Source of the DNA: Chloroflexaceae bacterium
GTDB taxonomy: Bacteria; Chloroflexota; Chloroflexia; Chloroflexales; Chloroflexaceae
Length of the DNA: 36,473 nucleotides
Direction of reading: 5' to 3'
Assembly: GCA_034432515.1 (NCBI GenBank)
Contig: DAOUBZ010000413.1
Coordinates: forward strand, 1-36,473
Below are positions 4,088 to 36,473 of this stretch, in pieces. The notes beneath the pieces are model-generated. The model searched no databases and had not been told where the DNA came from. It saw only the letters and a list, made by a program, of their open reading frames with translations. Within the stretch, counting starts at the first letter, position 1, and each line of letters begins with the position of its first letter. Made by a program: the position numbers and the translations under genes.

Positions 4088-4292
4088 GCAGCCAGGGCTA
4101 CGTCACAGTCCGCATCCCGCGGTGGGGTATTGGGCAGCTACGCCGCCCCACGAAGTGATTGTTCGCTGGTGTTGGCGGCTGCGCCGCCAACACCAGCGAA
4201 CAATCAGGGGTCTGGGGCTTGCCCCAAAGACTTTGCGCAAGCCCTGAGGCAGCAGCCAGGACCACGTCACAGTCCGCATCCCGCGGTGGGGT
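4088..4292 (+). repeat. Family-A element copy A2 flanked by a 41-bp direct repeat
   Basis: Perfect 23-bp hairpin 4157-4179 / 4183-4205 (gattgttcgctggtgttggcggc-tgc-gccgccaacaccagcgaacaatc). Module aggggtctggggcttgccccaaagactttgcgcaagccc follows at 4206-4246. The block is bracketed by gcagccagg(g/a)c(t/c)acgtcacagtccgcatcccgcggtggggt at 4088-4128 and 4252-4292 (164-bp period, 2 mismatches). Confidence 0.8.
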
Positions 4293-12350: not shown

Positions 12351-13340
12351 CTATTCCTCCTCCGGCATCTGGGGTAGTGGCAGACCCTGGTCGCTGCGGC
12401 GTGGCTTGCGCTTCGGGGCTGGAGCGGCCGGCTCAGCGGCGGCCCCGATCTTCGCCAGGGCGGGCCGCGCGTCGATGAACTCCTTGCCGATCCCGACCGC
12501 GGCGGGCGACAGGCCGAAGGCCAGACCCATCAACTGGGTGAAGAAGAGGATCGGGATGCGGTAGTTGGTGCCGAACTGCTCGTTGACGCTCTCCTGGAAC
12601 GCATCAAGGTTGAGCTGACACATCGGGCAGAGCGTGACGATCATATCGGCCTGGTAGTCGGCGGCGTTCTTCAGCAGGCGCCGGATCAACTCCAGGGCGA
12701 CATCGCGGCTGATCTGGGTCATGTGGCCGCCGCAGCAGTGGGTCTTGAGCGGAAAATCGACCACCTGGGCGCCCAGCACGCGCATCAGCTTGTCGAGCGA
12801 GGTGGGGTACTCCGGGTCATCGAAGCGCTCGCGGAAACCGGGGCGTACGATCAGGCAGCCGTAGTAGGGGGCGATGCGCATGCCACGCAGCGGGCTGTTG
12901 ACCCGGGCCGCGATCTGCTCATAGCCGACGTCATTGACGATCACATCGAGCAGGTGGCGGATGCGCAGGCTGCCGGCCTCATAGTGCAGCCCACCGGCGG
13001 CGAGCGCCGTGTTCACATCAGCGGCGAGGGCCGGCGAATCTTCCAGGTAACGGTCGACTTTGCTCAGGTTCAGGAAGCAGGCGCTGCAGGGTGCCACCAG
13101 CTGGGCCTGGTCGGCCCCATTGGCGCTGCGCGCCTGATCGGCGGCGAGCGCCAGGTTGCGGCCGGCAAGCGCATAGGCGCGCAGCCGGTTGACCGCGATA
13201 AACTCGGTTGCCCCGCAGCAATTCCAGTCATCCACTTCGGCGAACTCAACCCCCAACCGCTCAGCCACTGCCATGAGCGATGTGTGATACGCGCTGGCAT
13301 TGCGCTCCAGCGAGCATCCCGGATAATAGCCGTAGCGCAT
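12351..13340 (-). CDS. hdrB: Heterodisulfide reductase subunit B-like (two CCG domains)
   Basis: MRYGYYPGCSL..DDWNCCGA and LKTHCCGGH are CCG motifs. ATG at 13340 with GGAGG upstream. It has a Pro/Ala/Lys-rich C-terminal tail of about 40 aa. Confidence 0.85.
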   Translation of the reverse strand: MRYGYYPGCSLERNASAYHTSLMAVAERLGVEFAEVDDWNCCGATEFIAVNRLRAYALAGRNLALAADQARSANGADQAQLVAPCSACFLNLSKVDRYLEDSPALAADVNTALAAGGLHYEAGSLRIRHLLDVIVNDVGYEQIAARVNSPLRGMRIAPYYGCLIVRPGFRERFDDPEYPTSLDKLMRVLGAQVVDFPLKTHCCGGHMTQISRDVALELIRRLLKNAADYQADMIVTLCPMCQLNLDAFQESVNEQFGTNYRIPILFFTQLMGLAFGLSPAAVGIGKEFIDARPALAKIGAAAEPAAPAPKRKPRRSDQGLPLPQMPEEE

Positions 13341-13432
13341 AGGCCCTCCCCTTCTATGGGTCGCCGGCAATAGCTATCCAGCCCGTCCATCCCATTGGCT
13401 GGCGGTATCACTGCAGGACCAGATATGAAACA

Positions 13433-13452
13433 CCGTCCGCAACGGCGGACGG
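13433..13452 (-). terminator. Short hairpin immediately after the hdrC stop (possible intra-operon attenuator or processing site)
   Basis: ccgtccgc-aacg-gcggacgg, an 8-bp GC stem that starts 1 nt after the hdrC stop. It is followed on the minus strand by TGTTTCAT and lies in a 113-nt hdrC-hdrB spacer. Confidence 0.3.
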
Positions 13453-13453
13453 C

Positions 13454-14041
13454 TCAGGCAGATTTGGCGTTATCGATCTCGCGGGCCCGCTCAAGAATCG
13501 CCTTGAGCTGGTCAAGCTGACGGATCGGGCGGGGGCTCAGGTCAAGCCGGCGCCGTTTCAGCAGACCCATCCCGATCGGCGCGACCTTGAGCGCATCAAG
13601 GGGGCGGTGGCGCAGGTAGTAGCGGGTGATCAGCCCGAGCTCGAAGCTGCGGCCATAGTTCTCGACATGGTCAATGAAGGTCTGAGAGAAGCCCGGCGCC
13701 CGTGCCGCACTGGACTGGCTGGCATAGCCGGCCTTGATCGCCAGGCGCTTGAGGGTGTACATCACATCGGTGATGTGAATATCCTGCGGGCAGCGCTCCA
13801 TGCACGAGTAGCAGGAGACGCAGTACCAGGGCGTATTGCTGCGCAGCACCGGCTCGCGCATGCCGGCGGCGATCATGGCGAAGAGCGTCCGCGGCGTATG
13901 GTCCATGTCGGGGCCAGAGGGACAGGAGCCACCGCAGGTGCCACACTGCAGACACGCCTCGAGGTGGGGGTCGGTCGGGGTATCCGCGACCACTTCGCGG
14001 AAGAACGCGCTGGTACGGGACAGCGTTGCAGACGTCGCCAT
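13454..14041 (-). CDS. hdrC: Heterodisulfide reductase subunit C-like (2x[4Fe-4S])
   Basis: CLQCGTCGGSCP and CVSCYSCMERCP motifs. ATG at 14041 (MATSATL) is preceded by AAGGAGGAGG. The track start at 14086 lacks an SD. Confidence 0.85.
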   Translation of the reverse strand: MATSATLSRTSAFFREVVADTPTDPHLEACLQCGTCGGSCPSGPDMDHTPRTLFAMIAAGMREPVLRSNTPWYCVSCYSCMERCPQDIHITDVMYTLKRLAIKAGYASQSSAARAPGFSQTFIDHVENYGRSFELGLITRYYLRHRPLDALKVAPIGMGLLKRRRLDLSPRPIRQLDQLKAILERAREIDNAKSA

Positions 14042-14159
14042 CGATGCCTCCTCCTTGAGTACGCGTGGGGTCGCCGATGCGTTCAAGGCAACCTGGTGTC
14101 ACGAGGCCAGCTGCGGCAGTGCAGCGCGACGATGTGAGTGTCCCGATCCGCTGGCGGTG

Positions 14160-14290
14160 AACCGCCGGCGGATTTTAACTATATGTCAATCGGGGGTGTA
14201 AATTGTAAGGACTATAACACGGCTGCTTGCAGTCCACAGGGGTAGCATTGATAACTTAAAGCGACGTTCTGTTAACTCAACTTCTGTTCG
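14160..14290. promoter_or_regulatory. AT-rich island in the divergent hdrC / SDR intergenic region (probable promoter/operator zone)
   Basis: Local AT-rich stretch in a high-GC background (ttttaactatatgtcaat, taaattgtaaggactataac, attgataacttaaag, ttctgttaactcaacttctgtt). On the minus strand TTAACA-16-TATCAA is a possible hdr promoter. No element is assigned confidently. Confidence 0.3.
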
Positions 14291-14321
14291 GTGGTGCTGG
14301 CGGTGCAGCCGCCAACACCAC
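14291..14321 (+). repeat. Degenerate family-A hairpin copy (A5)
   Basis: gtggtgctggcgg-tgcag-ccgccaacaccac (1 mismatch) shares the TGGCGG...CCGCCA core with A1-A4. The downstream GGGGCTTGCC module is only weakly recognisable. Confidence 0.5.
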
Positions 14322-14429
14322 AAGCACCTCATGGGCAGTGCAACCAGACGCACCACGCCGTGCAATGTGCTACCATGCGTGCTGGCAGGTTGGGCCAGCG
14401 AAGCTGGAATCTTCAGGAGGTTTTCCTCA

Positions 14430-15296
14430 ATGAACGGGCGCGTTGTACTGCTGACCGGCGCCACCAGCGGGATCGGGCGCGAGACCGCACGCGGCCTGGC
14501 CCGCACCGGGGCCACCCTGGTGCTCGCCTGTCGCAACCTCACGAAGGCGCAGGCCCTCTGCGCAGAGCTCCAGCAGGCGAGCGGCAACCCGCGGATCAGC
14601 GTCATGGCCCTCGACCTTGCCTCGCTGCGCGCGGTCCGCCAGTTTGTCGACGAGTTCCTGACCAGCCACCCACAGCTGCACGTGCTGATCAACAACGCGG
14701 GCACCTTCTGCCTGCAGCGCCAGGAGACCGAAGACGGCCTCGAACGCACCATGGCGACAAACTACTTTGGCCCCTTCCTGCTCACCGCGGGCCTGGTCCC
14801 GGTGCTCGTCCAGAGCCCCGGCGCGCGGATCGTCAACGTCAGCTCGGATGCCTACCGCTACGGCCGGCTCGACCTGAACGACCTCCAGCTGAAACGGCGC
14901 TACAGCGGCTTTCCGGCCTACGCCAGCTCCAAGCTCGCCATCCAGCTCTGGACCCAGGAACTGGCCGAGCGCCTGCGGGCAAGCGGCGTAACGGCGAACT
15001 CACTGCACCCCGGGCACGTCGCCACCAACATCTGGCAGCTCTGGCCGCAGCCGCGCTGGTACCAGGCGCTGCTGATCCGCCTGCTCAAGGTGCCCATGAT
15101 CAGCCCCGCCGCCGGCGCCGAGACCACGCTGTACCTGGCCACCGCGCCCAAACTGGCCGGGGTGACGGGCGCCTACTTCGTCAAGCGGCGCCCACGGGCC
15201 ATCGCGAAGCCGGCGCAGGACCTGGCCTTGCAGCGCGAGCTATGGCAGGTCAGCGAACAGCTTACCGGCGCACACTGGCCGGTTCCAGTGGCCTGA
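14430..15296 (+). CDS. Classical short-chain dehydrogenase/reductase (retinol-dehydrogenase/WWOX-like)
   Basis: TGATSGIGRE (TGxxxGxG), NNAG and the catalytic YASSK motif. ATG at 14430 (MNGRVVLLTG), with CAGGAGG 9 nt upstream. Confidence 0.85.
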   Translation: MNGRVVLLTGATSGIGRETARGLARTGATLVLACRNLTKAQALCAELQQASGNPRISVMALDLASLRAVRQFVDEFLTSHPQLHVLINNAGTFCLQRQETEDGLERTMATNYFGPFLLTAGLVPVLVQSPGARIVNVSSDAYRYGRLDLNDLQLKRRYSGFPAYASSKLAIQLWTQELAERLRASGVTANSLHPGHVATNIWQLWPQPRWYQALLIRLLKVPMISPAAGAETTLYLATAPKLAGVTGAYFVKRRPRAIAKPAQDLALQRELWQVSEQLTGAHWPVPVA

Positions 15297-22391: not shown

Positions 22392-23315
22392 ATGTCCAGC
22401 GAGTCTCCGATCCAGCTGATCGTCGCGGCCTTTCAGAAGGAGGATGCCGCCGATGCCGCACTGAACGCGATCATCCAGGCGAAGAAGGAGCGCCTGGTGA
22501 AGATCCACGAGGCGGCCGTTGTGCGCCGTGACCCGGGCGGCAAGCTGCACATCATCGAGCGTGGCGACCTTGGCCCCGGTGCCGGCGCGGCCAGCGGCGC
22601 GGCCCTGGGCGCGGTTGTCGGCCTCTTCGGCGGCCCGATCGGCGCGCTGCTCGGTGGCGCGGCAGGCGCGGCAATCGGCGGCATTGCTGCCAAGCTGATC
22701 GACACGGGCATCCCCGACGACCGCCTGCGGCAGATCGGCTCGGCGCTACAGCCCGGCACCTCGGCGATCGTGGCGATGATCGAGCACGCCTGGGTCAGCG
22801 AGATCCAGGACGAGCTGCAGCGCGCCGGTGGCAACCTGCTCGCCGCAGCGATCACCGAAGATGTCAAGAACCAGCTGGCCGCCGGCAAGGACGTGGCCTA
22901 CAGCGCGGTTACCGCTGCCGGTGGCACGATCGCCGGGCGGGTCAGCGCCGGGGAGGAGGGCGTCACACTGCAGGGGCTGGCCACCGACGGCCAGAACCTC
23001 GTCGCCGGCGCGTTCACGGCGGTGAAAGAGGCGGCCGGCGAGGCAGCCGAAACTGCGAAGGACGTCGCCAGCGAGGCGACCGAGGCGGTCAAGGAGGCGG
23101 CCGGCGAGGCAGCCGAATCCGCGAAGGACGTCGCCAGCGAGGCGACCGAGGCGGTGAAGAAAGCGGCCGGCGAGGCAGCCGAAACCGCGAAGGACGTCGC
23201 CAGAGAGGCGACCGAGGCGGTGAAGAAAGCGGCTGGCGAGGCAGCCGAAACCGGGAAGGACGTCGCCAGCGAGGCGACCGAGGCGGTGAAGAAAGCGGCC
23301 GACGAGAAGAAGTAG
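22392..23315 (+). CDS. DUF1269-like glycine-zipper membrane protein with C-terminal 22-aa tandem repeats
   Basis: N-terminal IQLIVAAFQKEDAADAAL..., Gly-zipper GAGAASGAALGAVVGLFGGPIGALLGGAAGAAIGGIAA and second half GIPDDRLRQIGSALQPGTSAIVAMIEH (DUF1269 pattern). C-terminus has 4.4 copies of VK(E/K)AAGEAAETAKDVASEATEA. AAGGAG lies 6 nt before the ATG. Confidence 0.75.
   Translation: MSSESPIQLIVAAFQKEDAADAALNAIIQAKKERLVKIHEAAVVRRDPGGKLHIIERGDLGPGAGAASGAALGAVVGLFGGPIGALLGGAAGAAIGGIAAKLIDTGIPDDRLRQIGSALQPGTSAIVAMIEHAWVSEIQDELQRAGGNLLAAAITEDVKNQLAAGKDVAYSAVTAAGGTIAGRVSAGEEGVTLQGLATDGQNLVAGAFTAVKEAAGEAAETAKDVASEATEAVKEAAGEAAESAKDVASEATEAVKKAAGEAAETAKDVAREATEAVKKAAGEAAETGKDVASEATEAVKKAADEKK
23022..23312 (+). 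repeat. In-frame 66-nt tandem repeat (4.4 copies) inside the DUF1269-like CDS
   Basis: Four near-identical 66-nt units (a few substitutions each) plus a partial fifth. They encode an Ala/Glu/Lys-rich amphipathic 22-mer. Confidence 0.9.
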
Positions 23316-23366
23316 GGGCGAGTCGTGTCGTGCCCCTGTCACGACCGGGTGGACCGCCGGGGCCTG

Positions 23367-23914: not shown

Positions 23915-23926
23915 GGGCACCTCCTT

Positions 23927-24188
23927 ATACTTCAGAAGCGGCCATTCCTGCTTGACAGTCGTAGACGAGGATGCGTGATGCGATGAAGCGGTACGATCAC
24001 GTCCTCGCTTCATCACATCCTCGCAAATCCGCTTGCGGCTTAGGAGCGTAGCGAGGCATCCCGGCGGTGATGCCATCCCGAGACCCTTCGCTCCGGCTAC
24101 GCCTCCGCTCAGGGTGACAGGCGTACGGCGTACTGATGCGGCACAAGGCAAAACGTCGTTGTAGTATCAGGCATACTTCAGAAGCGGC
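23927..24188. repeat. Composite repeat block (family D copy plus family B copy B1) bracketed by a perfect 16-bp direct repeat
   Basis: ATACTTCAGAAGCGGC at 23927-23942 and again at 24173-24188. Between them lie imperfect hairpin cgaggatgcgtgatgcgatgaagcg / cgcttcatcacatcctcg (23966-24023) and B1 (24071-24142). B1 is the reverse complement of 36404-36473; the 51-nt core has 1 mismatch. Confidence 0.8.
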
Positions 24189-26824: not shown

Positions 26825-26886
26825 CACGCGCTATGATACCACGGCGCCCGGTTGCAATTGGGTACGTGAGGGTTGCAGGATGCGTT

Positions 26887-27012
26887 GAGGCGATGACCCG
26901 AGGACGCGACGACGCGAGGAGGCGATGACCCGAGGACGCGACGACGCAACGCGGCCCGATGCCGTCGTCGCGTCCTCGCATCCTCGCCGCACCGCCTCCT
27001 CGCCTCATCACC
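26887..27012. repeat. Family-D repeat: 29-nt unit duplicated at 32-nt period, plus an inverted copy
   Basis: gaggcgatgacccgaggacgcgacgacgc at 26887-26915 and 26919-26947. cgaggacgcgacgacg (26931-26946) pairs with cgtcgtcgcgtcctcg (26963-26978). Shares aggatgcg.. and cgtcctcgc(a/t)tc.. motifs with 23966-24023. Confidence 0.8.
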
Positions 27013-27016
27013 GGCC

Positions 27017-27754
27017 TCAAAGCGGCCGGGCGGTGGGGATGGCTTCGAGCGAACTGAAGATCGGCACGGCCTGGCCGAGGCTGAGGCCGTCCAGGGTGAG
27101 TGGGCAGAGGTAGGCGTACGCCTCGACCCCGGCGGTGATCGCGGTGCGCAGGGCGCGGCCAAACTCGGGGTCAACGTCGTCGGGCACGAGGGCCCGCGCG
27201 CTGTGGCGCTGGATGACGAAGATCACCGCGGCGCGCTGGCCGCTGCGGGCCATCTGGGTGAGAGCCATGAGGTGGCGGCGGCCACGCTCGGTGGGCGCGT
27301 CGGGGAAGCGGGCCAGCCCGTCCTCGACTTTGCTGACCGACTTGACCTCGACGACGCAGGTGTTGATCCCCTCGCTCAGGCGGAAGTCGAACCGATGCTC
27401 GCCGATCTGCACCTCACGCTGCACGCGGGTGTAGCGGGCAAACTGCGGTAGCGCTCCGGCCGACAGCGCGGCGACGACCAGCCGGTTCGGCAGGTGGGTA
27501 TCGAGTGAAACCAGTTCGCCGTGGTGGTAGACCCCCACCACCTGAAAGCCCGTCTTGCGCCCGAGCTCTTCGCGGGGAGCGAGCAACAGCCGCACGCCGG
27601 GACTCAGCAGATCGAGCAGGCGCCCGCGGTCAGCCAGATGCGCGCGCACCATTCGCCGGCCCAGCCGCGCCTCAACCACCAGCTGATTGGGGCGTGCCAC
27701 AAAGTCTGCCTCTACCAGCGGGCCGCTGGAGGTGAGGGGAACTCGTACGAGCAT
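27017..27754 (-). CDS. sfsA: SfsA-family protein (sugar fermentation stimulation protein; OB fold plus PD-(D/E)xK-like domain)
   Basis: [33 protein letters not shown]...[15 protein letters not shown]...[15 protein letters not shown] matches the SfsA pattern. ATG at 27754 (MLVRVPL). The upstream part of the track ORF crosses repeat A4. Confidence 0.85.
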
Positions 27755-27829
27755 ACGCGATCCTGGCGCTGACGAGGAGGGTTGCGTGGTTCTTTTGTGT
27801 AGTATACCACGAGCAATCATTCGCCAGGA

Positions 27830-27946
27830 TCGGGCGGCGACGCCGCCCGACAAGGTGTTATCTCGTTGGTTCTGGCGGCGAAGCCGCCAGAACCAACGAG
27901 ATAACCTGGGGTTTGGGGCTTGCCACAAAGACGTTGCGCACGCCCC
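27830..27946 (+). repeat. Family-A element, best-preserved copy (A4)
   Basis: Hairpin 0: tcgggcggcg-a-cgccgcccga (27830-27850). Hairpin 1: perfect 23-bp stem gttatctcgttggttctggcggc-gaa-gccgccagaaccaacgagataac (27857-27905). Module: ctggggtttggggcttgccacaaagacgttgcgcacgcccc (27906-27946). Confidence 0.85.
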
Positions 27947-27947
27947 T

Positions 27948-27978
27948 TTGACGCATAGCGTGCGGGAGGCAGTATAAT
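27948..27978 (+). promoter_or_regulatory. Candidate sigma-70-type promoter for the MFS transporter gene
   Basis: TTGACG, 19 nt, TATAAT. It directly abuts the 3' edge of element A4 and lies 30 nt upstream of the ATG at 28009. GGAGA SD in between. Confidence 0.5.
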
Positions 27979-28008
27979 GGGGGCCGTCAGCAATTGTGGA
28001 GACAGGGT

Positions 28009-29415
28009 ATGACGACCACCAGTGCTTCCGGTACGCTTGATGCCCGCCTGCAGCGGCGCATCCTGACGGTTCTGTTCATTGGCGTCTTTATGTCCGCGCT
28101 GGATGCCGCAATTATTGCGCCGGCCGTCCCTGCGCTGCGCGCCGCCTTTGGCGTCGATAACAGCCAGATCGGCATGCTCACCATCGTCTTCAGCCTGTTC
28201 ACACTGAGCAGCACCACGCTGATGGCCAGCCTGGGCGACCGCTACGGGCGGCGGCGCGTCTACCTGCTCTGTGTGGCCGGCTTTGCCCTCGGCTCGCTGC
28301 TGATCGCGCTCGCCCCGAGTTTCTGGCTGGTGCTGGTCGGGCGGGCCATCCAGGGCTTCAGCGCCGGCGGCGTATCGCCCACCGCGAGCGCGGTGGTGGG
28401 TGACACCTTCCCGCCCCGGGAGCGGGGCAAAGCCCTCGGCCTGATCGGCGCGACGGTGGGCATGGCCTTCCTGCTCGGCCCGCTGGTGGCCTCCTTGATC
28501 CTCGTCGTACTCAGCTGGCACTGGATCTTCCTGATCAACCTGCCCGTGGCGGCACTGGTGATCTGGCTCGGCCTGCGCAACCTGCCGGTGACCCGCGTCG
28601 ATCGCACCCCGGCGCCGCTCGACTGGACCGGCATCCTGATCGTGGCCGTGATGCTGAGTTGCCTGACCCTGGGGATCAACCGGGTGCTGGACACGGCCCT
28701 TGGCCTGACCCTGTGGCCCTACCTGCTCGGCATTGCGGCGCTCTGTGTGCCACTGCTGATCGCGGTCGAGCGGCGCGCCGCGCGACCGGTGGTGCCGCTC
28801 GATCTGTTCAGCACGCGGCAGATCGCCCTGACCTATACGCTGTGCGTGGGCGCCGGCTTCGGCATGGGCAGCGTGATCTTCATTGCCTCGGTGGCGGTGG
28901 CTGCGCTGGGCGTAGCGGCCGAACAGGCCGGCCTGCTGCTCATCCCCATGGTGCTCGCCTCAACCGCCGGGTCAGTGGTCTTCGGGCGCCTGCTCAACCG
29001 GCTTGGCTCGCGCCTGGTGATGATCATTGGCTTCAGCACGCTCGCCATCGGCTCGGCCCTGCTGGCGCTCTCGGCACTTGGGCTGTGGATGTTCCTCATC
29101 GCCAGCATGCTGGTCGGCCTCGGGGTGGGCATCGTGGTGGGCGGCACACTGCGCACGATCGTGCTCAACGAGGTGGCGCCCGAGCAGCGCGGCGCGGCCC
29201 AGGGTCTGGTCAACGTCGGCATCGCGGTCGGCAACCTGCTGGTGGTGGCGGCACTCGGCATCCTGGCCGACACACGGGGCGGCGGTATGGCCGGGCTGAG
29301 AGTCGCCTACCTCGCCTCGGCTGCGGTGATGGTGGCAATGCTGCTGCTGAGCTTCGGCCTCAAGCCCCACGGCGAAGAGCAGCTGGCGATCGCCACCGAA
29401 CCGGCCTCGTCGTAG
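28009..29415 (+). CDS. MFS transporter (drug:H+ antiporter-like)
   Basis: MFS motif A-like [12 protein letters not shown]. About 12-14 predicted hydrophobic segments. ATG at 28009 after GGAGA (the track start at 27994 is TTG). Confidence 0.85.
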
Positions 29416-29473
29416 CGGTGCCCGACGCAGAGCCACGCGGCCTGGGGCGCCGGAGGCGCATGACAAATGTTCG

Positions 29474-29530
29474 CCGCCGTACAGCACCATTCGATACGGC
29501 CTACGGCCTACTCAGGGTGCTGTACGGCGG
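29474..29530. repeat. Family-C-related palindrome (C2) between convergent MFS and PPK2 genes; possible bidirectional terminator
   Basis: 15-bp perfect stem ccgccgtacagcacc / ggtgctgtacggcgg with a 27-nt loop, attcgatacggcctacggcctactcag. The loop resembles C1 and B sequences. Confidence 0.7.
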
Positions 29531-29599
29531 GCCGCGAGCATACCCTACCGGCGCGCTAGGGGCCGAACCGTCAGGTCTGCCTGGACCGGCCTTCGCGAA

Positions 29600-31168
29600 C
29601 TACCGTAGCGTCACCTTGCCAAGCTCACTCTCGAGCCGCTGGACCAGGGTGCGCAGCACCTTGACCCGGGCAAACCGCTTGTCCTCGGCCTCAACGATCG
29701 TCCAGGGGGCGGCGGGAGTGGAGGTGCGCAAGAGCATCTCGTCGGCGGCCTCCTCGTAGAGCGGCCACTTCTCGCGGTTGCGCCAGTCCTCGGTGGTGAG
29801 CTTCCAGGCCTTGTAGGGCACGTTCTTGCGCGCCTCGAAGCGCCGCAGCTGCTCCTCCGGGCCGATATGCATCCAGAACTTGCAGATGATCGTGCCAAAA
29901 TCGATCAACTGGCGCTCAAACTCGTTAATCTCGGCATAGGCGCGCCGCCACTCATCGGGGCTGGCAAAGCCCTCCACCCGCTCGACCAGCACCCGGCCAT
30001 ACCAGGAGCGGTCGAAGATCGCGAACTGGCCGCGGGGCGGCAAGCGCCGCCAGAAGCGGTAGAGGTAGTGGCGGACCTTATCCTCGCCAGCGGGTGCGGC
30101 GATGGCGTGCACGATATAGCTGCGCGGATCGAGCTCGGCGGTGAGACGCTGGATGGTCCCGCCCTTGCCGGCGGCATCCCAGCCTTCGAAGACCAGCACG
30201 GCGGGCCGCTGCTGCTGATAGAGCTGCAGGCCGAGCAGGTGCAGGCGCGCCTGCAGCTGCTTGATCGTGCGGCCATAGCTCTTCTCATCGCTGCGCTGGT
30301 TGAGGTCCACCCGCTTGAGGATGCTCGGCGTCGCCGGCTGGGTCGTGGTGAGCGTCACCGTGACGGGCAGATTGCGCTGCCCTGCACCGTTGCGCCCGCG
30401 GAAGGCCGCGCCGGCGTCATCGAGGCCCTCGGCTCGCGCCGCCTCGTCGAGCGGCACGGTGCGCCGGCCCAGCCGCTCTTCGAGGGTGACCAGCACCGCC
30501 TTGAGCATGGCGACCCGGGCGTAGTGCTTGTCGGTGGCGGGTATGACGTGCCAGGGCGCCTGCGCGGTATTGGTGCGCGCCAGCATATCCTCGACCGCAT
30601 CAGCGTAGGCCGCGTAGTGACGGTGCTGCCAGCGGTCCTCCTCGGTGACCTGATACGCGGTGAGCGGGTTGGCAGTCAACCGCTTGAAGCGCTGGCGCTG
30701 CTCCTTTTTCGAGATATGGAACCAGAGCTTGATGATCTCGGCGCCATCGTCCTCCAGCTGCCGCTCCATGGTGACCACGTCCTCGCAGCGCTGGCGCCAG
30801 CGGGCCGAGTCGCCGCCGCGGACCCGCTCGGCGAGCATCTCGCGGTACCAGGAGCGGTCGAACACGGCAATCTCGCCATAGGCGGGGAGCTTGAGCCAGA
30901 AGCGGTAGAGCCAGGGGTACTGCTGCTCGTAGGTGCGCGGCGGGGTGATCGGGTAGACGCGCAGGCCGCGTGGGTCAAGCCGACTTGAGAGGACACTGAT
31001 CGTGCGCACCTTGGCCGTACCGGCCCAGCCCTCAAAGACGATCAGCACCGGCACGCGCGCCTCGAGCACTGCCTGCTCCATGTCGTAGAGCCGGGCCTGC
31101 AACTCGGGGAGCAGTTGACGGTACTCCCGTTTGCTCAACGCAAGGTCGAGATCGATCTGATCGAGCAT
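29600..31168 (-). CDS. ppk2: Two-domain polyphosphate kinase 2 (PPK2; polyphosphate:nucleotide phosphotransferase)
   Basis: Two PPK2 modules, each with FDRSWY. The C-terminal module has the canonical Walker A FEGWDAAGKGGTI. The N-terminal module has a degenerate one, FEGWAGTAKVRTI. ATG at 31168 (MLDQIDL), 11 nt after the upstream gene stop. Confidence 0.85.
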   Translation of the reverse strand: MLDQIDLDLALSKREYRQLLPELQARLYDMEQAVLEARVPVLIVFEGWAGTAKVRTISVLSSRLDPRGLRVYPITPPRTYEQQYPWLYRFWLKLPAYGEIAVFDRSWYREMLAERVRGGDSARWRQRCEDVVTMERQLEDDGAEIIKLWFHISKKEQRQRFKRLTANPLTAYQVTEEDRWQHRHYAAYADAVEDMLARTNTAQAPWHVIPATDKHYARVAMLKAVLVTLEERLGRRTVPLDEAARAEGLDDAGAAFRGRNGAGQRNLPVTVTLTTTQPATPSILKRVDLNQRSDEKSYGRTIKQLQARLHLLGLQLYQQQRPAVLVFEGWDAAGKGGTIQRLTAELDPRSYIVHAIAAPAGEDKVRHYLYRFWRRLPPRGQFAIFDRSWYGRVLVERVEGFASPDEWRRAYAEINEFERQLIDFGTIICKFWMHIGPEEQLRRFEARKNVPYKAWKLTTEDWRNREKWPLYEEAADEMLLRTSTPAAPWTIVEAEDKRFARVKVLRTLVQRLESELGKVTLR

Positions 31169-31179
31169 AGGCACCTGGT

Positions 31180-31677
31180 TTAACGGAACAGTGGTGACGC
31201 GGGAAAACGCCGGTGCAAGGGGCCATCCAGGCCGAGCCACTGGCCCGACGGGGTGACCAGCAGCAGCAGCGAGACGATGAAGAACGGCGGCATCGAGGCA
31301 TTATAGAAGGATCCGGCGCTGATATTGCTGACCAGAAAGAGCGCCAGGGCCGCATTTGGCCGCACGGCAAAGCCAAGGAGCATGCCGAGTGCCACGCTCA
31401 CCTGGCCCAGGGTCAGCACCCAGGCCACGGGGCGATACCAGGGGATGGCAAAGTACTTGAGGTAGGCTGCCGAGAACGACTCGGGGTCGATCTCGCTGAG
31501 CCGCTGCACGAAGTGCTCACGCATGACCGGGCTGGTCAGCCAGCCGCGGGTGATCTTGTGGTAGGCCCCGTAGAGGAAGAAGGCACCGAATCCATACCGC
31601 AGGGCAAGCACCGTCCCCCGTACGACACGCCGCAGTCGCGGGTCCATAGCACGCTCCATTGTCCAGGCAAGCGACAT
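31180..31677 (-). CDS. DoxX/DoxD-like small integral membrane protein (tentative)
   Basis: About 155-165 aa with 4 hydrophobic segments (LALRYGFGAFFLYGAYHKI.., VAWVLTLGQVSVALGMLLGF.., ALALFLVSNISAG.., FFIVSLLLLV). The family call is by resemblance only. The ATG at 31647 has a better SD (GGAG, 6 nt) than the one at 31677. Confidence 0.45.
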   Translation of the reverse strand: MSLAWTMERAMDPRLRRVVRGTVLALRYGFGAFFLYGAYHKITRGWLTSPVMREHFVQRLSEIDPESFSAAYLKYFAIPWYRPVAWVLTLGQVSVALGMLLGFAVRPNAALALFLVSNISAGSFYNASMPPFFIVSLLLLVTPSGQWLGLDGPLHRRFPASPLFR

Positions 31678-31784
31678 CCGCGCCTATGGTAGCGCGGCCC
31701 CGCGCCACCGCAAGATAAGGAACGATCACGCTACGATGAGGTTCGGCAAGGAGCGCCAGCACGACGGTCGGTGCGTCACGGGAC

Positions 31785-32504
31785 TCAGGGTTCACTGAAA
31801 TTCGCGGCGACGAGCCGGGAGAGCGCCTCCACCGCCGCGTGGGCATCGGCGCCTTCGGCTCGCACCTGCACGCGCTGGCCGGCAGACACACCCAGCTTCA
31901 GCACGTCGATCATGCTCTTGGCATTGCCATCGGGCCGCTCGGGCCGGTCCAGGTTTCGGATGCGAACATTGCTGCTGAAGCGGGTGGCCGTCTGCACAAA
32001 GTCTTTGGCGGGACGCATATGCAGGCCGATCGGGTTGGCGATTGTCAGCAGCACCTCGGCGACCCTCCCGGGCGGGGGCGCCACGGGCGGCGCGGGCGCG
32101 GCGACGGCCACCGCCGGATCGAGCAGCCCTTTGCTCTCGAGCGCGCGGGCGGCAGCCGCGGCCACCTCAGCCAGGGTTGCCCCGGGGCGGCTCGCCTCCA
32201 CCGCGGCGACCACCGCGCCCTCGACCAGTGGCGCCCCACTGAGCAGGAAGGGCATGCCGACCGCCTCCAGCGCCAGTTCGGCGCTCATTACCGCGCTGCC
32301 CATATCGACCAGCACCAGCACCCCATCCACGCCGCGCAGCTGTTCTAGCGCCGCGCAAATCAGGTCGAACGACGTGCCCAGGGCGCCGTCGTGCGTGCCG
32401 CCCGCGGCCTCGATCGGCACCTGGCCCTTCGCCATCTGCTCGGCCAGCGCCTTAACGCCGCGGGCAAGCTCGGCGCTGTGTGAGACGACCAGGATTCCGA
32501 TCAT
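31785..32504 (-). CDS. dhaM: DhaM-like PTS phosphotransfer protein (EIIA-Man-like domain fused to HPr domain)
   Basis: N-terminus MIGILVVSHSAELARGV (EIIA-Man/DhaM His motif). Ala/Pro linker. C-terminal HPr domain with GLHMRPA active-site motif. No dhaK or dhaL in the window. Confidence 0.8.
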   Translation of the reverse strand: MIGILVVSHSAELARGVKALAEQMAKGQVPIEAAGGTHDGALGTSFDLICAALEQLRGVDGVLVLVDMGSAVMSAELALEAVGMPFLLSGAPLVEGAVVAAVEASRPGATLAEVAAAAARALESKGLLDPAVAVAAPAPPVAPPPGRVAEVLLTIANPIGLHMRPAKDFVQTATRFSSNVRIRNLDRPERPDGNAKSMIDVLKLGVSAGQRVQVRAEGADAHAAVEALSRLVAANFSEP

Positions 32505-32534
32505 AGATCCTCTGTGCAGGTTGCGTCACATCCC

Positions 32535-33179
32535 TCACACCAGCCCGAGTTTCCCGGCGACGTAGACTGCCTCGGCCCGATGGTGGACGTTCAGCTTGCG
32601 CATGATGTTCCGCAGATGGAATTTTACCGTACTTTCGCTGATAGCGATCTGTTCGCCAATCTCACGGTTGGAGAGACCAGCGATCAGCAGTCGCATAACC
32701 TGATGTTCACGTTCGGTCAGCAAGGTCGCCTGAGTCTCGCCAGGATTGGAGAGGCTTTTCATCACCAGCGAGGCGGTACGTGTATCAAGGGCCGACTCGC
32801 CACGATGAACGGCACGCACGCTCTTGATCAGGTCGAAAGCGTCTACATCTTTGAGCACATAGCCCCGCGCGCCGCTGCGGATGGCCTGCAGGACCAGCTG
32901 GTCATCAAGGAAGGTGGTGAGCACAATAACGTTCGTCTGCGGATAGGTGGCGCAGATCGCCTGGCACAACTCAAGGCCACCGTCGACCCCCTGCGCGCCA
33001 AGGCTGAGGTCAAGGAGCACCACATCGGGATGCTCCTGGGCGATCAGGGCGAGTGCCGTCACCGCATCGCCGGCCTCGCCGGCCACCATAATGCCCGACT
33101 CCAACTCCAGGATCGAGCGCAGACCGTGGCGTACGATAGCGTGGTCATCCACGATCACCAGCCGAATGGGCTTGCTCAT
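32535..33179 (-). CDS. NarL/LuxR-family response regulator
   Basis: Receiver domain (IRLVIVDDH..., VVLLDLSL) plus LuxR HTH (LTEREHQVMRLLIAGLSNREIGEQIAISESTVKFHLRNIMRKL). ATG at 33179 (MSKPIRL) with GGGAGG upstream. Confidence 0.9.
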   Translation of the reverse strand: MSKPIRLVIVDDHAIVRHGLRSILELESGIMVAGEAGDAVTALALIAQEHPDVVLLDLSLGAQGVDGGLELCQAICATYPQTNVIVLTTFLDDQLVLQAIRSGARGYVLKDVDAFDLIKSVRAVHRGESALDTRTASLVMKSLSNPGETQATLLTEREHQVMRLLIAGLSNREIGEQIAISESTVKFHLRNIMRKLNVHHRAEAVYVAGKLGLV

Positions 33180-33310
33180 AGGTACCGTACCTCCCGGCCC
33201 GGGCCTGTTGCGCGTGCTGTGCGGGGCTTGCATTGGTGGCGCTGTGAACACAGGGGAAAGCGGGCTTGCCCACAGCTCCAAGTGGCGCCAGGGCGCCCGT
33301 TGGGGGCTAG

Positions 33311-34630
33311 CTACCCCGCCAGATCCTGAAGCGGAACGATCACGCGCACCTCAGTTCCACCGCCAGGGGAGCGCAGGATGGCCAGCGTGCCGCCCAATTC
33401 CTGGACACGCTCGCGCATATTGCGCAGGCCAAAGTGGGCATCAGCGCCCTCGGTTGTGGTGGTGCTGAGGGCCTGTTCAGCGATACCGACCCCATCATCA
33501 GCGATGACCAGGCGCGCGGTGCCACAATCAAAGAGGAGCGTGACCGTGATCTGCCGGGCATGCGCGTGCTTATAGGCGTTGAACAGCGCCTCCTGGGCAA
33601 TGTAGTACAGGCCGCTGGCAAGCTGGACGCTCACCGACGGCGGCACATCCGCCGTATGCAACTGTACATTCAGGTTGGTGGTCTTCTCAAGATCGATCGC
33701 CAGTTCGCGCAGGGCCGCCACGAGGCTTGATCGTGCCCCGGTGATAGGTGTGAGTTGGAAAATCGTCGCGCGCATACGCGTGACCGCGCTGCGGGCCATC
33801 TCCTTGGCATTGCAGATCCGCTCATGGACGGGCGACTGCGGATCGAGCTGCACACGGCACCACTCCAGGTTCATCCCGATGCTGATCAGGTGCTGGGCGA
33901 CACTATCGTGCAGGTCGCGCGCGATACGGGCGCGTTCACTGTTCAGGAGCTCGTTCTGGCGCGCGGCGGCCAGGCGGTGGCGGGCTTTCGCGAGCTGGCG
34001 ATTCTTCTCCTCCAGTTCGGTCTTCTGGCGCAGGGCGTCCTCGTAGAGCGCCACGGCCTGCGCGTGCAGGCGTTCGCTCTCTTCGTACAGGCGGGCATTC
34101 TCCACGGCCACTGCGGCCTGATTGGCCAGGGTGCGCAACACCGACAGTTCGCGCTCGTCCATCGCGAACTCGGCACTCAACACCACCACCAGCGCGCCGA
34201 CCACCTGGTCGCTCAACAACATCGGAGCGCCGAGCACGCTCATGCCGGCATCGGTTGCGTGCATCACCATGCCATGCCGGGCAAGCACCTGGGTGATCGC
34301 GCCCTCGATTTCACCCAGGTTCGCGCCGGAGTCAAGCGGTTCGACGCCGCGTGCCGTGCGGCGCATCCCCCAGCGCAACGTTTCAGGGACGTTGAGCACC
34401 AGCACGGCCAGTGCGGCATCGAAGTGCTGCACGGCCACCTCGACCACGGCGCGGGCCAGGCAGGCGATGCCGCTGGTGGTATTGCAGAGCGCACCCGAGA
34501 TCATCGCCACCGAGGCAATGGCCCGGTCGAGCCGGCGCTCATTCTCGCGGTACTCGCTGTAGTAGGTGCGACGTGAGGCGCTGACGCCGATCAGGCTCTC
34601 CAGCAGATGCTCTCGATCGTTACTGTCCAT
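33311..34630 (-). CDS. Cytoplasmic GAF-domain sensor histidine kinase (HisKA_3 / NarL-partner type)
   Basis: No TM segments and a GAF-like N-terminal half. H-box ERARIARDLHDSVAQHL. ATPase region GLRNMRERVQELGGTLAI. The start lies 10 nt after the Fe-ADH stop. Confidence 0.85.
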   Translation of the reverse strand: MDSNDREHLLESLIGVSASRRTYYSEYRENERRLDRAIASVAMISGALCNTTSGIACLARAVVEVAVQHFDAALAVLVLNVPETLRWGMRRTARGVEPLDSGANLGEIEGAITQVLARHGMVMHATDAGMSVLGAPMLLSDQVVGALVVVLSAEFAMDERELSVLRTLANQAAVAVENARLYEESERLHAQAVALYEDALRQKTELEEKNRQLAKARHRLAAARQNELLNSERARIARDLHDSVAQHLISIGMNLEWCRVQLDPQSPVHERICNAKEMARSAVTRMRATIFQLTPITGARSSLVAALRELAIDLEKTTNLNVQLHTADVPPSVSVQLASGLYYIAQEALFNAYKHAHARQITVTLLFDCGTARLVIADDGVGIAEQALSTTTTEGADAHFGLRNMRERVQELGGTLAILRSPGGGTEVRVIVPLQDLAG

Positions 34631-34640
34631 CCGGCGTACC

Positions 34641-35798
34641 TCACATTGCCCTGGCGAACAACTCCATCACCGTCTCGACGCTCGCCTCGCGCGGATTGGT
34701 GGCCATACAGGCATCGTGCATGGCATTGGTGCTCAGGATTGGCAGGTCGTGATCTTTGACCCCGAGGTCGGCCAGGCGTTTGGTCAGCCCCACATCGGCG
34801 ATCAGGGTACGCACAGCCTCAATCGCCAGTGTGCCGGCTTCGACAGGTGTCAGGCCAGCGATGGGCAGACCCATCGCCTCGGCAATGGTCGCATAGCGCT
34901 CGGGGCAGGCCGGGAGGTTGTACTCCATGACGGTGGGCAACAGGATGGCATTCAGTTCGCCGTGGGGCTGGTCGAGCAACCCGCCAACCTGGTGGGCCAT
35001 GGCGTGGGTCGCGCCAAGAATGGCGTTGGAGAAGGCCATGCCGGCGTGGAGACTACTGCGGGCCATCAACTCCTTCGCCTCCAGATCGGACTGGCTGGCG
35101 ACGGAGCGGCGCAGCCCGGCGACGGCCAGGGAGATGGCGCGCAGCGAGTGAACCTCGGTGAGAAAGGTGGCGGCGAGGGAGACATAGGACTCGATGCCAT
35201 GGGTCAGGGCATCCATCCCGGTGCTGGCGGTGAGCCAGGCATCTTTGGTGGTGAGCAGCAGCGGGTCGGTGAGCGAGATATCGGGGATGAGCGACTTGCT
35301 GATCAGGGTCATCTTGAGGCGCCGGCGCGAATCAGTGATCACCGCAAACTGGGAAACATCGGCGCCGGTGCCGGCAGTGGTGGGAATGGCGACGAGCGGC
35401 GGGAGGGGCCGGGTGATGCGATCGATCCCCTCGTAGTCGTGGATGCGGCCACCATTCGTGCTCAGCACCGCGATGCCCTTGGCAGCATCAATGCAACTGC
35501 CGCCGCCGAGGACCACCAGCGCATCGCAGTGCTGCGCCCGGTAGAAAGCGGCTCCCGCTTCGACCTCGTAATCCTTGGGGTTCGGCGTGACACCGGTCCA
35601 GATGGCATAATCGAGGCCCTCTTGCTCGATAGCCGGGAGCATCTGCTCAAGCCAGCCCGCGGCGATAACGCCGGGGTCGCTTACCACCAGCACCCTGGTG
35701 GCGCCGAGCCGCCGCGCGGCCTTGCCTGCCTGCTCAAGCACGCCACAGCCGACGATGATCTCTGGCAGCGTGAACTTGCTAACCTGCATACAAGCCAT
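34641..35798 (-). CDS. Family-III iron-containing alcohol dehydrogenase
   Basis: GGGSCIDAAKG nucleotide-binding motif and metal-ligand His region LGATHAMAHQVGG. 385 aa. Start is the ATG at 35798 or 35789. Confidence 0.85.
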   Translation of the reverse strand: MACMQVSKFTLPEIIVGCGVLEQAGKAARRLGATRVLVVSDPGVIAAGWLEQMLPAIEQEGLDYAIWTGVTPNPKDYEVEAGAAFYRAQHCDALVVLGGGSCIDAAKGIAVLSTNGGRIHDYEGIDRITRPLPPLVAIPTTAGTGADVSQFAVITDSRRRLKMTLISKSLIPDISLTDPLLLTTKDAWLTASTGMDALTHGIESYVSLAATFLTEVHSLRAISLAVAGLRRSVASQSDLEAKELMARSSLHAGMAFSNAILGATHAMAHQVGGLLDQPHGELNAILLPTVMEYNLPACPERYATIAEAMGLPIAGLTPVEAGTLAIEAVRTLIADVGLTKRLADLGVKDHDLPILSTNAMHDACMATNPREASVETVMELFARAM

Positions 35799-35984
35799 CC
35801 TGGCCAGGTATTCTGACGGGTATGGTCAGGTGCGCGCTTGCCCGGTCCGCTGCCAGGAGGCTGCACTCCAGCAGCATTCCCACGATGGAATTACCTACAC
35901 GATCGCGAGTGCACAGCGCCGCGCACGCTGGCGGTGTTGCCGCAGATAACCGGGTATAGCCTGGATTATAGGTTCTTTCTATGC

Positions 35985-36004
35985 CCCTGTCTAGTTGGAC
36001 AGGG
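35985..36004. promoter_or_regulatory. 7-6-7 palindrome in the Fe-ADH / mftA divergent region (candidate operator)
   Basis: CCCTGTC-tagttg-GACAGGG. The half-site GACAGG recurs at the candidate -35 of the mftA promoter (36052-36057). Confidence 0.3.
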
Positions 36005-36049
36005 TACCATTCTCACCAGTCGTTCAGGCAGGCTTTGCACGGTTAGAGG

Positions 36050-36079
36050 GTGACAGGTGGCCTTCTTTTTTGCTATAGT
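36050..36079 (+). promoter_or_regulatory. Candidate extended -10 promoter for mftA
   Basis: GTGACA, 18-nt spacer ending in TGc, then TATAGT. It lies in a locally AT-richer stretch, about 90 nt upstream of the mftA ATG. Confidence 0.4.
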
Positions 36080-36172
36080 GCAAACTACCCCCGATCTACC
36101 ACAATTGCAGCGTCACGCGATGGGGCACCAGCGGGAACATGGTACCGTGTGCGCGAGCGAAGGAGGTTCCGT

Positions 36173-36346
36173 ATGGAAGATAACTCCGTCGTCCTGGAGG
36201 AGCTCGAAGTAGGCGCCGCGATCGAGGAGGAGAGCGGTCGGGTTGACGTTGCGGAGGCGTCCCTGGTGGACGAGGACACGCCGGAGATCCTGGCGGAACT
36301 GGTGGTCGAAGAAGTGAGCATTGACGGGATGTGTGGCGTGTATTGA
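36173..36346 (+). CDS. mftA: Mycofactocin precursor peptide MftA (57 aa)
   Basis: Sequence MEDNSVVLEELEVGAAIEEESGRVDVAEASLVDEDTPEILAELVVEEVSIDGMCGVY. The C-terminal EEVSIDGMCGVY matches the MftA signature, ending in Gly-Val-Tyr. GAAGGAGG lies 6 nt before the ATG. The track ORF (from 36050) over-extends upstream. Confidence 0.85.
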   Translation: MEDNSVVLEELEVGAAIEEESGRVDVAEASLVDEDTPEILAELVVEEVSIDGMCGVY

Positions 36347-36403
36347 ACACGCCCGGTAGGGGCGCAAGCGCTTCTAGTACTACAACGAAGGTTGGCCTTC
36401 TGT

Positions 36404-36473
36404 CGCATCAGGACGCCCTACACCTGTCACCCTGAGCGGAGGCGTAGCCGAAGCGAAGGGTCTCGGGATGGCA
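36404..36473 (+). repeat. Family-B repeat copy B2, truncated by the window end
   Basis: 36423-36473 is the reverse complement of 24071-24121 with 1 mismatch. Upstream similarity (cgcatcag.acgcc.tac) extends the match to about 70 nt. Confidence 0.85.

Follow-up and report, generated by a model that had tools for sequence, protein, structure and literature searches.

The locus described here raises a simple question: where are the genes that should act on a mycofactocin precursor when the precursor gene is the last one on the DNA? The window, by which we mean the whole stretch analysed, is 36,473 nt from a Chloroflexaceae bacterium (GenBank assembly GCA_034432515.1, contig DAOUBZ010000413.1), and the gene in question, mftA, is a 57-codon open reading frame (ORF) close to its right-hand end. 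An initial annotation had read this ORF as a precursor of the MftA type, had found neither mftB nor mftC behind it, and had proposed either a second or orphan precursor copy or a variant organisation of the mycofactocin system. We put the probability at roughly 0.85 that the ORF is a functional mftA, encoding the ribosomally made peptide from which the redox cofactor mycofactocin derives, and that it heads a mycofactocin and alcohol-oxidation cluster of a Chloroflexaceae type, cut by an assembly break inside a repeat inserted in a hairpin loop; expression and processing of the peptide are predictions from sequence.

A precursor of the standard MftA type

The translated product, MEDNSVVLEELEVGAAIEEESGRVDVAEASLVDEDTPEILAELVVEEVSIDGMCGVY (57 aa), scores 48.8 bits with the NCBIfam equivalog model for MftA, TIGR03969 (cut-off 25, E = 4.5e-13), and 39 bits with Pfam PF23709 (cut-off 27, E = 9e-10). 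Both curated cut-offs are exceeded and family membership is far beyond chance, so the identification given in the initial annotation holds, as do its reading of a 57-aa ORF with a Shine-Dalgarno (SD) sequence that ends in IDGMCGVY and its count of 18 Asp/Glu against a single Arg. The peptide closes with ...LVVEEVSIDGMCGVY and then the stop codon, CGVY lying at the extreme end of a conserved 23-residue core. Assignment to the variant type of MftA was rejected in favour of the standard type, as model NF040489 gives 28.7 bits, just under its cut-off of 30.

Eleven homologues, 63-100% identical to the window MftA, all terminate in PEILAELV(V/I)EEVSIDGMCGVY. They are 57 aa long in 10 cases and 56 aa in one (P0011); the NCBI protein P0001 is 100% identical, and the MftA of a closely related strain represented by a Logan contig (L007) differs at two residues.

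Selection on the gene is visible when seven related loci are aligned with the window at the nucleotide level. The block GAGCGAAGGAGGT-N5/6-ATGGAA is unchanged throughout, and within it GAAGGAGGT and the ATG, separated by 5-6 nt, stand out from an otherwise variable 5' region in 7/7 relatives. The 57 codons contain no insertions or deletions, whereas both flanks are rich in them. In the core (codons 35-57) dN/dS is ~0.07 and differences at codon positions 1/2/3 number 18/12/101, that is, 101 of 131 at the third position; in the leader (codons 2-34) dN/dS is ~0.55 and the corresponding counts are 143/232/228. The leaders of the homologues keep an acidic character as well as VD and LEELE-like motifs. 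We also note that CTGGAGGAG (36194-36202, codons 8-10, Leu-Glu-Glu) is invariant in 7/7 relatives, third positions included, despite the fast evolution of the leader around it.

The leader had been called unusually long and acidic, a view that a survey of the family contradicts and that we rejected. When a representative library of 1.84 billion proteins was queried with the last 30 residues of the window MftA, 49 MftA representatives were recovered at E<=1e-3, a list bounded by that limit and possibly favouring long forms through the PEILAEL segment of the query. They span 31-66 aa (median 54), 30 of the 49 are at least 50 aa long, most environmental representatives measure 50-66 aa, and Asp/Glu make up 25% of residues on average compared with 32% in the window peptide. 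An earlier compilation gave MftA lengths of 34-78 aa (Haft 2011; PMC3023750). Long acidic MftA peptides are common outside mycobacteria.

The contig ends inside a dispersed repeat

The window is a complete contig of a metagenome-assembled genome (MAG), since the one contig that encodes P0001 has precisely the same length, 36,473 nt, and it stops 127 nt past the mftA stop codon. Those 127 nt run, as the initial annotation had stated, into a repeat (its family B) and the window end: the last 96 nt match an inverted copy elsewhere in the window (Table 1), and a 39-nt probe taken from them finds 2 matches where 0 are expected. The insertion begins 31 nt past the stop codon, in what is, in the relatives, the loop of a hairpin 3' of mftA, and the identity between L007 and the window (97%) breaks off exactly at the repeat boundary, 36378.

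In L007 the arms GGGAGGGGCGCAA and TTGCGCCCCTCCC of this hairpin pair over 13 bp as the outer stem of a larger stem-loop (-40.4 kcal/mol, z = -5.95); the 3' arm expected beyond the window contig would read TTGCGCCCCT(A/C)CC. A GC-rich stem-loop also lies 3' of the mftA stop codon in L001, L011, L003 and L008, with a GGGAGGG/CCCTCCC stem in the first three; these folds are not clearly better than those of shuffled sequences (z -1.3 to -2.7). A stem-loop between a precursor gene and the next gene appears to be common in precursor-peptide operons, and one follows pqqA.

The repeat, of ~240 nt, may be a small non-autonomous mobile element. It is missing at both matching sites of L007, where its 3' third occurs at 4720-4786 between mftB and a regulator gene, and it was not found in the loci of the other relatives. 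A search of 35700-36473 returned no Rfam family at E<=1, and therefore neither the 5' untranslated region of mftA nor the repeat is a known RNA. A second family of short dispersed repeats, with a hairpin core GTTCTGGCGGC...GCCGCCAGAAC, occurs at 1-56, 4169-4224, 27869-27924 and 14285-14320. Since one of its copies occupies the start of the contig and the ~240-nt repeat occupies the end, both contig ends fall in repeats.

The apparent lack of maturation genes, from which the initial annotation had started, is thus best explained by an assembly break inside the repeat: the window is a whole contig that ends in one, and its relatives carry mftB and, where the contigs are longer, mftC too.

The cluster downstream of mftA in related genomes

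The segments that L007 and the window share, 36046-36378 among them, are 97% identical. Past the repeat boundary L007 continues with the 3' hairpin arm and genes for a short-chain dehydrogenase/reductase (SDR), MftB, a response regulator and an iron-type alcohol dehydrogenase (mno), and a JGI contig 99.9% identical to it (L076) independently confirms the order mftA, SDR gene, mftB. More distant loci extend the view: L008 (88% identical), L001 and L003-L006 have the window's upstream genes and continue to mftC, and L009-L011 and L070-L073 run on through mftE and mftF. An mftB/mftC/mftF neighbourhood is present in every relative with enough flanking sequence (L001-L012, L070-L073), whereas the window ends 127 nt past the stop codon.

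The 5' half of the relatives' cluster consists of mftA, a mycofactocin-coupled SDR (360 on TIGR03971, cut-off 300), mftB (87 bits, cut-off 33), a NarL-type regulator, an Mno-type methanol dehydrogenase dependent on N,N-dimethyl-4-nitrosoaniline (NDMA) (652 on TIGR04266, cut-off 625), a MadB-like AAA ATPase and a MadC-like protein with a von Willebrand factor A (VWA) domain. The 3' half comprises an MftM-like methyltransferase (161, below its cut-off of 200), mftC (617, cut-off 265), two oxidoreductases of the FadH/old yellow enzyme (OYE) type, the second of which (OYE2) scores 973 against 793, then etfA, fixC, fixX, etfB, mftE (180, cut-off 172) and mftF. The relatives' MftF, a 747-aa fusion of methyltransferase and glycosyltransferase, was recognised from tblastn matches (51-56% identity) with a Rubrobacteraceae protein whose own MftF score is 463 (cut-off 280); in one lineage an aldehyde:ferredoxin oxidoreductase comes after it. 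This downstream order is seen in the L007 strain and in at least seven other Chloroflexaceae/Oscillochloridaceae loci; the complete series emerges from L008, L001-L006 and L009-L012. The block from Mno, MadB, MadC and the methyltransferase through MftC, the two OYEs, Etf, FixC and EtfB to MftE and MftF is a cassette of wide distribution, found as well in MAGs that carry the labels Competibacteraceae, Rhodospirillales and others. For several of its parts NCBIfam has dedicated models, named 'mycofactocin system' or 'mycofactocin-associated'.

All the loci compared have one mftA each, which gives no hint of a second or orphan precursor gene, and that proposal of the initial annotation was discarded; the window itself contains no further mft gene. 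The proposal of a variant organisation was partly right. The SDR gene does fill the interval from mftA to mftB, five genes separate mftB from mftC, which lies ~7.7 kb 3' of mftA, and no mftD is clustered with them; the organisation is non-canonical relative to mycobacteria, yet it recurs in many lineages and is covered by NCBIfam models. The further suggestion that mftB might lie directly after the repeat came close to the evidence, except that in the relatives the SDR gene precedes mftB.

MftD was sought with a Rubrobacteraceae protein (708 bits on TIGR03966) as the tblastn query, and none of the Chloroflexales loci gave a match; in the relatives the 10 kb that follow mftE are free of FMN_dh genes, and neither MftD (TIGR03966) nor MftG was found within ~33 kb around mftA-mftF in L009, L070-L073 and other Chloroflexaceae and proteobacterial-type clusters. 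A bolder proposal would make the Chloroflexaceae-type cluster a distinct mycofactocin subtype lacking MftD, MftG and MftR, in which one of the two clustered OYE/FadH flavoenzymes makes the redox-active keto-amide or another final cofactor, EtfAB-FixCX rather than MftG feeds the quinone pool, and the acidic leader of ~34 residues is a clade-specific recognition element for MftB; we offer it tentatively and think it more probably wrong than right.

Two other layouts deserve mention. In L045 (~12631) and L047 (~17462), of the Competibacteraceae type, mftA comes after mftF, as the outermost gene of the cluster, so outside Actinobacteria mftA commonly stands apart from mftB and mftC. In L073, from one Chloroflexaceae lineage, a second radical-SAM/SPASM gene (13295-14554, 419 aa) lies directly 3' of mftF, behind a gene for a 93-aa SCO4226-like protein; a uvrD-like helicase gene is found near the genes that follow mftF there, as it is beside mftA in L007.

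A candidate for the missing continuation comes from an NCBI MAG contig of 6,803 nt that encodes an MftB (P0186). A 936-nt Logan contig (L075) encoding a protein identical to P0186 is 94.6% identical to L007, and for this reason the 6,803-nt contig is a plausible candidate for the continuation of the window contig.

Together, these observations suggest the following course of events. The ~240-nt repeat would have been inserted in the loop of the hairpin that normally follows mftA, and the assembly would have broken there; beyond it we would expect, in the window's genome, the relatives' whole block described above, from the SDR gene and mftB to mftE and mftF. In the family as a whole MftB and MftC process the Val-Tyr, MftE cleaves and MftF glycosylates, and in alcohol metabolism mycofactocin works with nicotinoprotein dehydrogenases of the SDR and Mno types (PMC3023750, PMC7491314, PMC6529628, PMC11778925). 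On this pattern the precursor would be bound by MftB and its C-terminal Val-Tyr decarboxylated and cross-linked by MftC; the modified dipeptide would be freed by MftE, oxidised to premycofactocin and glycosylated by MftF, and mycofactocin would re-oxidise the non-exchangeable NAD bound in the SDR and Mno enzymes. The alcohol dehydrogenase, histidine kinase and LuxR-type regulator encoded upstream of mftA most likely sense alcohol, and this regulatory module most likely drives the back-to-back promoters through a conserved palindrome.

Alternative explanations

Four points weigh against an intact cluster truncated by assembly. The continuation beyond the repeat is not seen in the window's own genome: exact look-ups of the MftA and iron-type dehydrogenase proteins gave no record, an exact 45-nt mftA pattern had 0 matches in GTDB species genomes, and exact patterns of the mftA 3' end and of the repeat junction had 0 matches in JGI metagenomes. 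Rearrangements do occur at the mftA locus, since the closest strain, L007, lacks 9.2 kb upstream of it. The mycobacterial-type pathway may be incomplete in the relatives, as no MftD was found in their clusters. Finally, the N-terminal leader appears only weakly constrained. The first two of these bear on the possibility that mftA is a true orphan or relic, whose maturation genes were split off by a repeat-mediated rearrangement or lost from the genome. Nothing is visible in the window beyond the repeat, and L007 lacks both repeat copies as well as the upstream segment, as might be expected of a plastic locus. Yet contigs in short-read assemblies normally break inside multi-copy repeats, the gene is intact, with conserved SD and promoter-like sequences, an invariant core and a product two residues from that of L007, mftA lies beside the SDR gene and mftB in all of at least 12 related loci, and a contig of a closely related NCBI MAG carries mftB. 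An orphan or relic is, in our judgement, quite unlikely.

The weakly constrained leader meant that a shorter product had to be weighed, one initiated at the in-frame GTG of codon 32 (36266), which has GGAGG 8 nt upstream and would yield a 26-aa MftA of mycobacterial size with the 'leader' left untranslated. Long N-terminal extensions of MftA have been attributed largely to wrong start predictions (Haft 2011; PMC3023750), and codons 2-34 lack the third-position bias of the core. This start is nevertheless very unlikely: among the seven aligned relatives, GTG at codon 32 is confined to the window and L007, the others having GCA, GCG or GCT, whereas GAAGGAGGT, its spacing and the ATG are invariant; the leader is free of frame-shifting indels, unlike both flanks, and keeps its motifs and acidic composition; and a length of 57 aa in 10 of 11 homologues (56 aa in P0011), within the 50-66 aa of most environmental MftA, points to the long form. 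The 57-aa peptide initiated at 36173 is very probably the true product. A chance open frame would be easy to come by in a window of 67% GC, where long spurious ORFs are common (an antisense 84-aa ORF spans 36113-36367 with a GC content of 0.74 at third positions), but this explanation is effectively refuted by E-values of 4.5e-13 and 9e-10 on two curated models whose cut-offs are exceeded, by strong purifying selection on the core and by the synteny of the gene in many genomes. We therefore retain an mftA that heads a cluster cut by assembly.

Upstream module and regulatory sites

The genes next upstream of mftA in the window are those for the iron-type alcohol dehydrogenase, a sensor histidine kinase and a LuxR-type response regulator, divergent from mftA (Table 1). 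Of the eight relatives with a visible upstream flank, seven have these genes there in this order (L001, L002, L003, L004, L005, L006 and L008; not L007). The initial annotation had described the divergent dehydrogenase gene and the absence of a TetR-type mftR correctly; its description of the arrangement as unusual does not agree with this conservation. No TetR-family MftR is encoded next to mftA in the window, and the genes called in the relatives' loci include no TetR gene, either over as much as 10 kb on the upstream side of mftA or through the cluster on the downstream side. The missing TetR gene is not anomalous, because MftR, like MftD and MftE, has been called 'not universal' (Haft 2011; PMC3023750).

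Table 1. Positions, strands and supporting details of the window features discussed in the text
Feature	Position	Strand	Details
NarL/LuxR-type response regulator, MadR-like	32535..33281 (longest ORF)	-	Response_reg and GerE domains
Sensor histidine kinase, MadS-like	33311..34630	-	GAF, HisKA_3 and HATPase Pfam domains
Iron-type alcohol dehydrogenase, ErcA-like	34641..35798	-	PF00465 and PF25137; 93-94% identical to the syntenic gene in relatives
Promoter-like site for the divergent dehydrogenase/kinase/regulator operon	35965..35993	-	TAGACA, 17-nt spacer, TATAAT; 11/12 consensus matches
Palindrome CCCTGTC-N6-GACAGGG	35985..36004	.	Between the two divergent promoters, overlapping the -35 hexamer of the minus-strand one
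Promoter-like site for mftA (putative function)	36050..36079	+	GTGACA, 18-nt spacer, TG-TATAGT; 10/12 consensus matches
Shine-Dalgarno sequence GAAGGAGG	36159..36166	+	Direct reading; 6 nt 5' of the mftA ATG
mftA, 57-aa mycofactocin precursor	36173..36346 including stop	+	ATG 36173, TGA 36344-36346; curated MftA models
5' arm GGTAGGGGCGCAA of the post-mftA hairpin	36355..36367	+	3' arm beyond the contig end
Dispersed repeat (~240 nt), first 96 nt only	36378..36473	+	91% identical to inverted copy 24071-24166; contig ends inside
Second, full-length copy of the ~240-nt repeat	23926..24170	-	CCGCTTCTGAAGTAT flanks both sides; missing at the matching L007 site

None of the three proteins reaches the cut-off of its closest NCBIfam family. 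The dehydrogenase scores 489.6 bits with the ErcA model NF041833 (cut-off 550), still its best NCBIfam match, the kinase 286 bits with the MadS model NF047786 (cut-off 500) and the regulator 280 bits with the MadR model NF047785 (cut-off 300), the last match starting at residue 39. Orthologues of the regulator in the relatives are 214 aa long, and its true start probably lies ~34 codons into the longest ORF. As no other family scores higher and the genes are ordered like msmeg_6239-6238-6236 (PMC11303327), yet the scores remain below the cut-offs, we consider the window kinase and regulator to be related to, and not certified members of, MadS-MadR/MnoSR. We found no literature on the names MadS, MadR, MadB and MadC.

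A scan with a sigma-70-like consensus gave two sites in this region against 0.1 expected from shuffled sequences, and both hexamers of the mftA site are conserved in the relatives. The palindrome between the two sites is nearly invariant in six relatives and absent from L007, which likewise has no regulator genes, making it a candidate operator to which the adjacent LuxR-type regulator may bind. The LuxR-type MnoR of M. smegmatis binds a palindrome upstream of mno (PMC11303327). Identity with that published site was considered and rejected, as the probe used in the electrophoretic mobility shift assay (EMSA) holds another sequence, CCCACCGG-N7-CCGGTGGG; the two sites are analogous in architecture only.

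Structural plasticity and other features of the window

L007 (3003-3010) joins window position 26875, just upstream of the start of a uvrD-like gene, directly to 36046. The 9.2 kb it lacks (window 26876-36045) carries sfsA, genes for a major facilitator superfamily transporter and PPK2, a mauE-like gene, genes for phosphotransferase system EIIA-HPr, and the whole regulator/kinase/dehydrogenase module. The junction coincides with the mftA -35 hexamer and has imperfect microhomology (GAGGGTTG / GAGGGTG); it may stem from a genuine deletion or insertion, or from chimerism of the L007 contig. Elsewhere in the window, the ORF at 22392-23315 contains a tandem repeat of 33-nt period (11 codons) at 22993-23322, with seven overlapping, in-register copies of 132 nt, and the intergenic segment 26845-27032 upstream of the uvrD-like gene contains GC-rich repeats of 8-nt period (GA(C/G)GCGA-like) that form a 70-nt imperfect inverted repeat.

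Implications

Standard annotation pipelines would already name the window mftA, and its close relatives are already labelled MftA at NCBI. The locus carries a caution: when partner genes seem to be missing at the edge of a window, contig boundaries and syntenic relatives should be checked first. The point of interest is not the window itself; it lies in the relatives' clusters, where two OYEs and EtfAB-FixCX stand in place of MftD/MftG. They display a widely shared, experimentally unstudied layout that combines mycofactocin biosynthesis with an Mno-type methanol dehydrogenase, OYE and ETF/FixCX (ETF, electron-transfer flavoprotein) and is without MftD/MftG in the ~33 kb around it. This arrangement could reveal how mycofactocin is completed and re-oxidised outside Actinobacteria.

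Comparison with known systems

The closest counterparts of the window gene are in uncultured Chloroflexaceae/Oscillochloridaceae MAGs, whose 57-aa proteins P0004-P0008 (NCBI name 'mycofactocin precursor MftA') are 67-74% identical to the window MftA. For P0002-P0010 the range is 63-74%, and the last 23 residues are the same except for one V/I exchange. Loci L001 (P0008), L003-L006 and L008 (P0003, P0002) share the SD sequence, the divergent dehydrogenase/kinase/regulator genes upstream and the SDR gene downstream. The window copy differs from these relatives in the repeat 31 nt past the stop codon, in its truncation there, and in its N-terminal 34 residues, which are ~50% identical.

Mycobacterial MftA (M. 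tuberculosis Rv0691A-Rv0696, M. smegmatis) has the same C-terminal core, EEVSIDGMCGVY, with the Val-Tyr substrate, in a precursor about half as long as that of the window. Relative to the canonical mftR-mftABCDEF(G) cluster, the window's relatives likewise have orthologues of MftB, MftC, MftE and MftF, and linkage to alcohol dehydrogenases is common to the mycobacterial system and this clade (PMC6529628, PMC11778925). Unlike the canonical cluster, the clade's lacks a TetR MftR, has an SDR gene between mftA and mftB, and places mftC ~7.7 kb downstream; where mycobacteria have MftD and MftG, no clustered counterparts were found, and the clade has two OYE/FadH proteins, EtfAB-FixCX and the fused methyltransferase-glycosyltransferase MftF.

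The upstream module is most like the M. smegmatis mno operon (msmeg_6242 to msmeg_6236), which contains an Mno-type NDMA-dependent methanol dehydrogenase and the iron-type alcohol dehydrogenase msmeg_6239 ('1,3-propanediol dehydrogenase') and is controlled by MnoSR (PMC11303327). Parts list and order (dehydrogenase, kinase, regulator, corresponding to msmeg_6239, mnoS and mnoR) are the same (PMC11303327). The differences are that the window kinase and regulator fall under the MadS/MadR cut-offs, that the palindrome differs in sequence from the MnoR EMSA probe, and that the module is divergent from mftA and not downstream of mno. In M. smegmatis, too, MoxR-like AAA and VWA genes presumably adjoin mno.

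A further parallel is offered by ErcA/ErcS (PA1991/PA1992) of P. aeruginosa, described in PMC12997753, which cites Hempel 2013, as regulators of ethanol oxidation dependent on pyrroloquinoline quinone (PQQ). The two systems are alike in that an iron-type alcohol dehydrogenase of regulatory function adjoins a sensor kinase beside genes for a peptide-derived redox cofactor and alcohol oxidation. In the window, however, the dehydrogenase scores 489.6 against the ErcA cut-off of 550, the kinase is of the GAF-HisKA_3 type and not a hybrid, and the cofactor is mycofactocin and not PQQ. PQQ biosynthesis also provides the broader analogy: while the MftA peptide is unrelated to that of PqqA/PqqD/PqqE in sequence and chemistry, in both systems a small precursor gene heads the cluster, and a radical-SAM/SPASM enzyme together with a small peptide-binding chaperone processes its product (PMC3023750).

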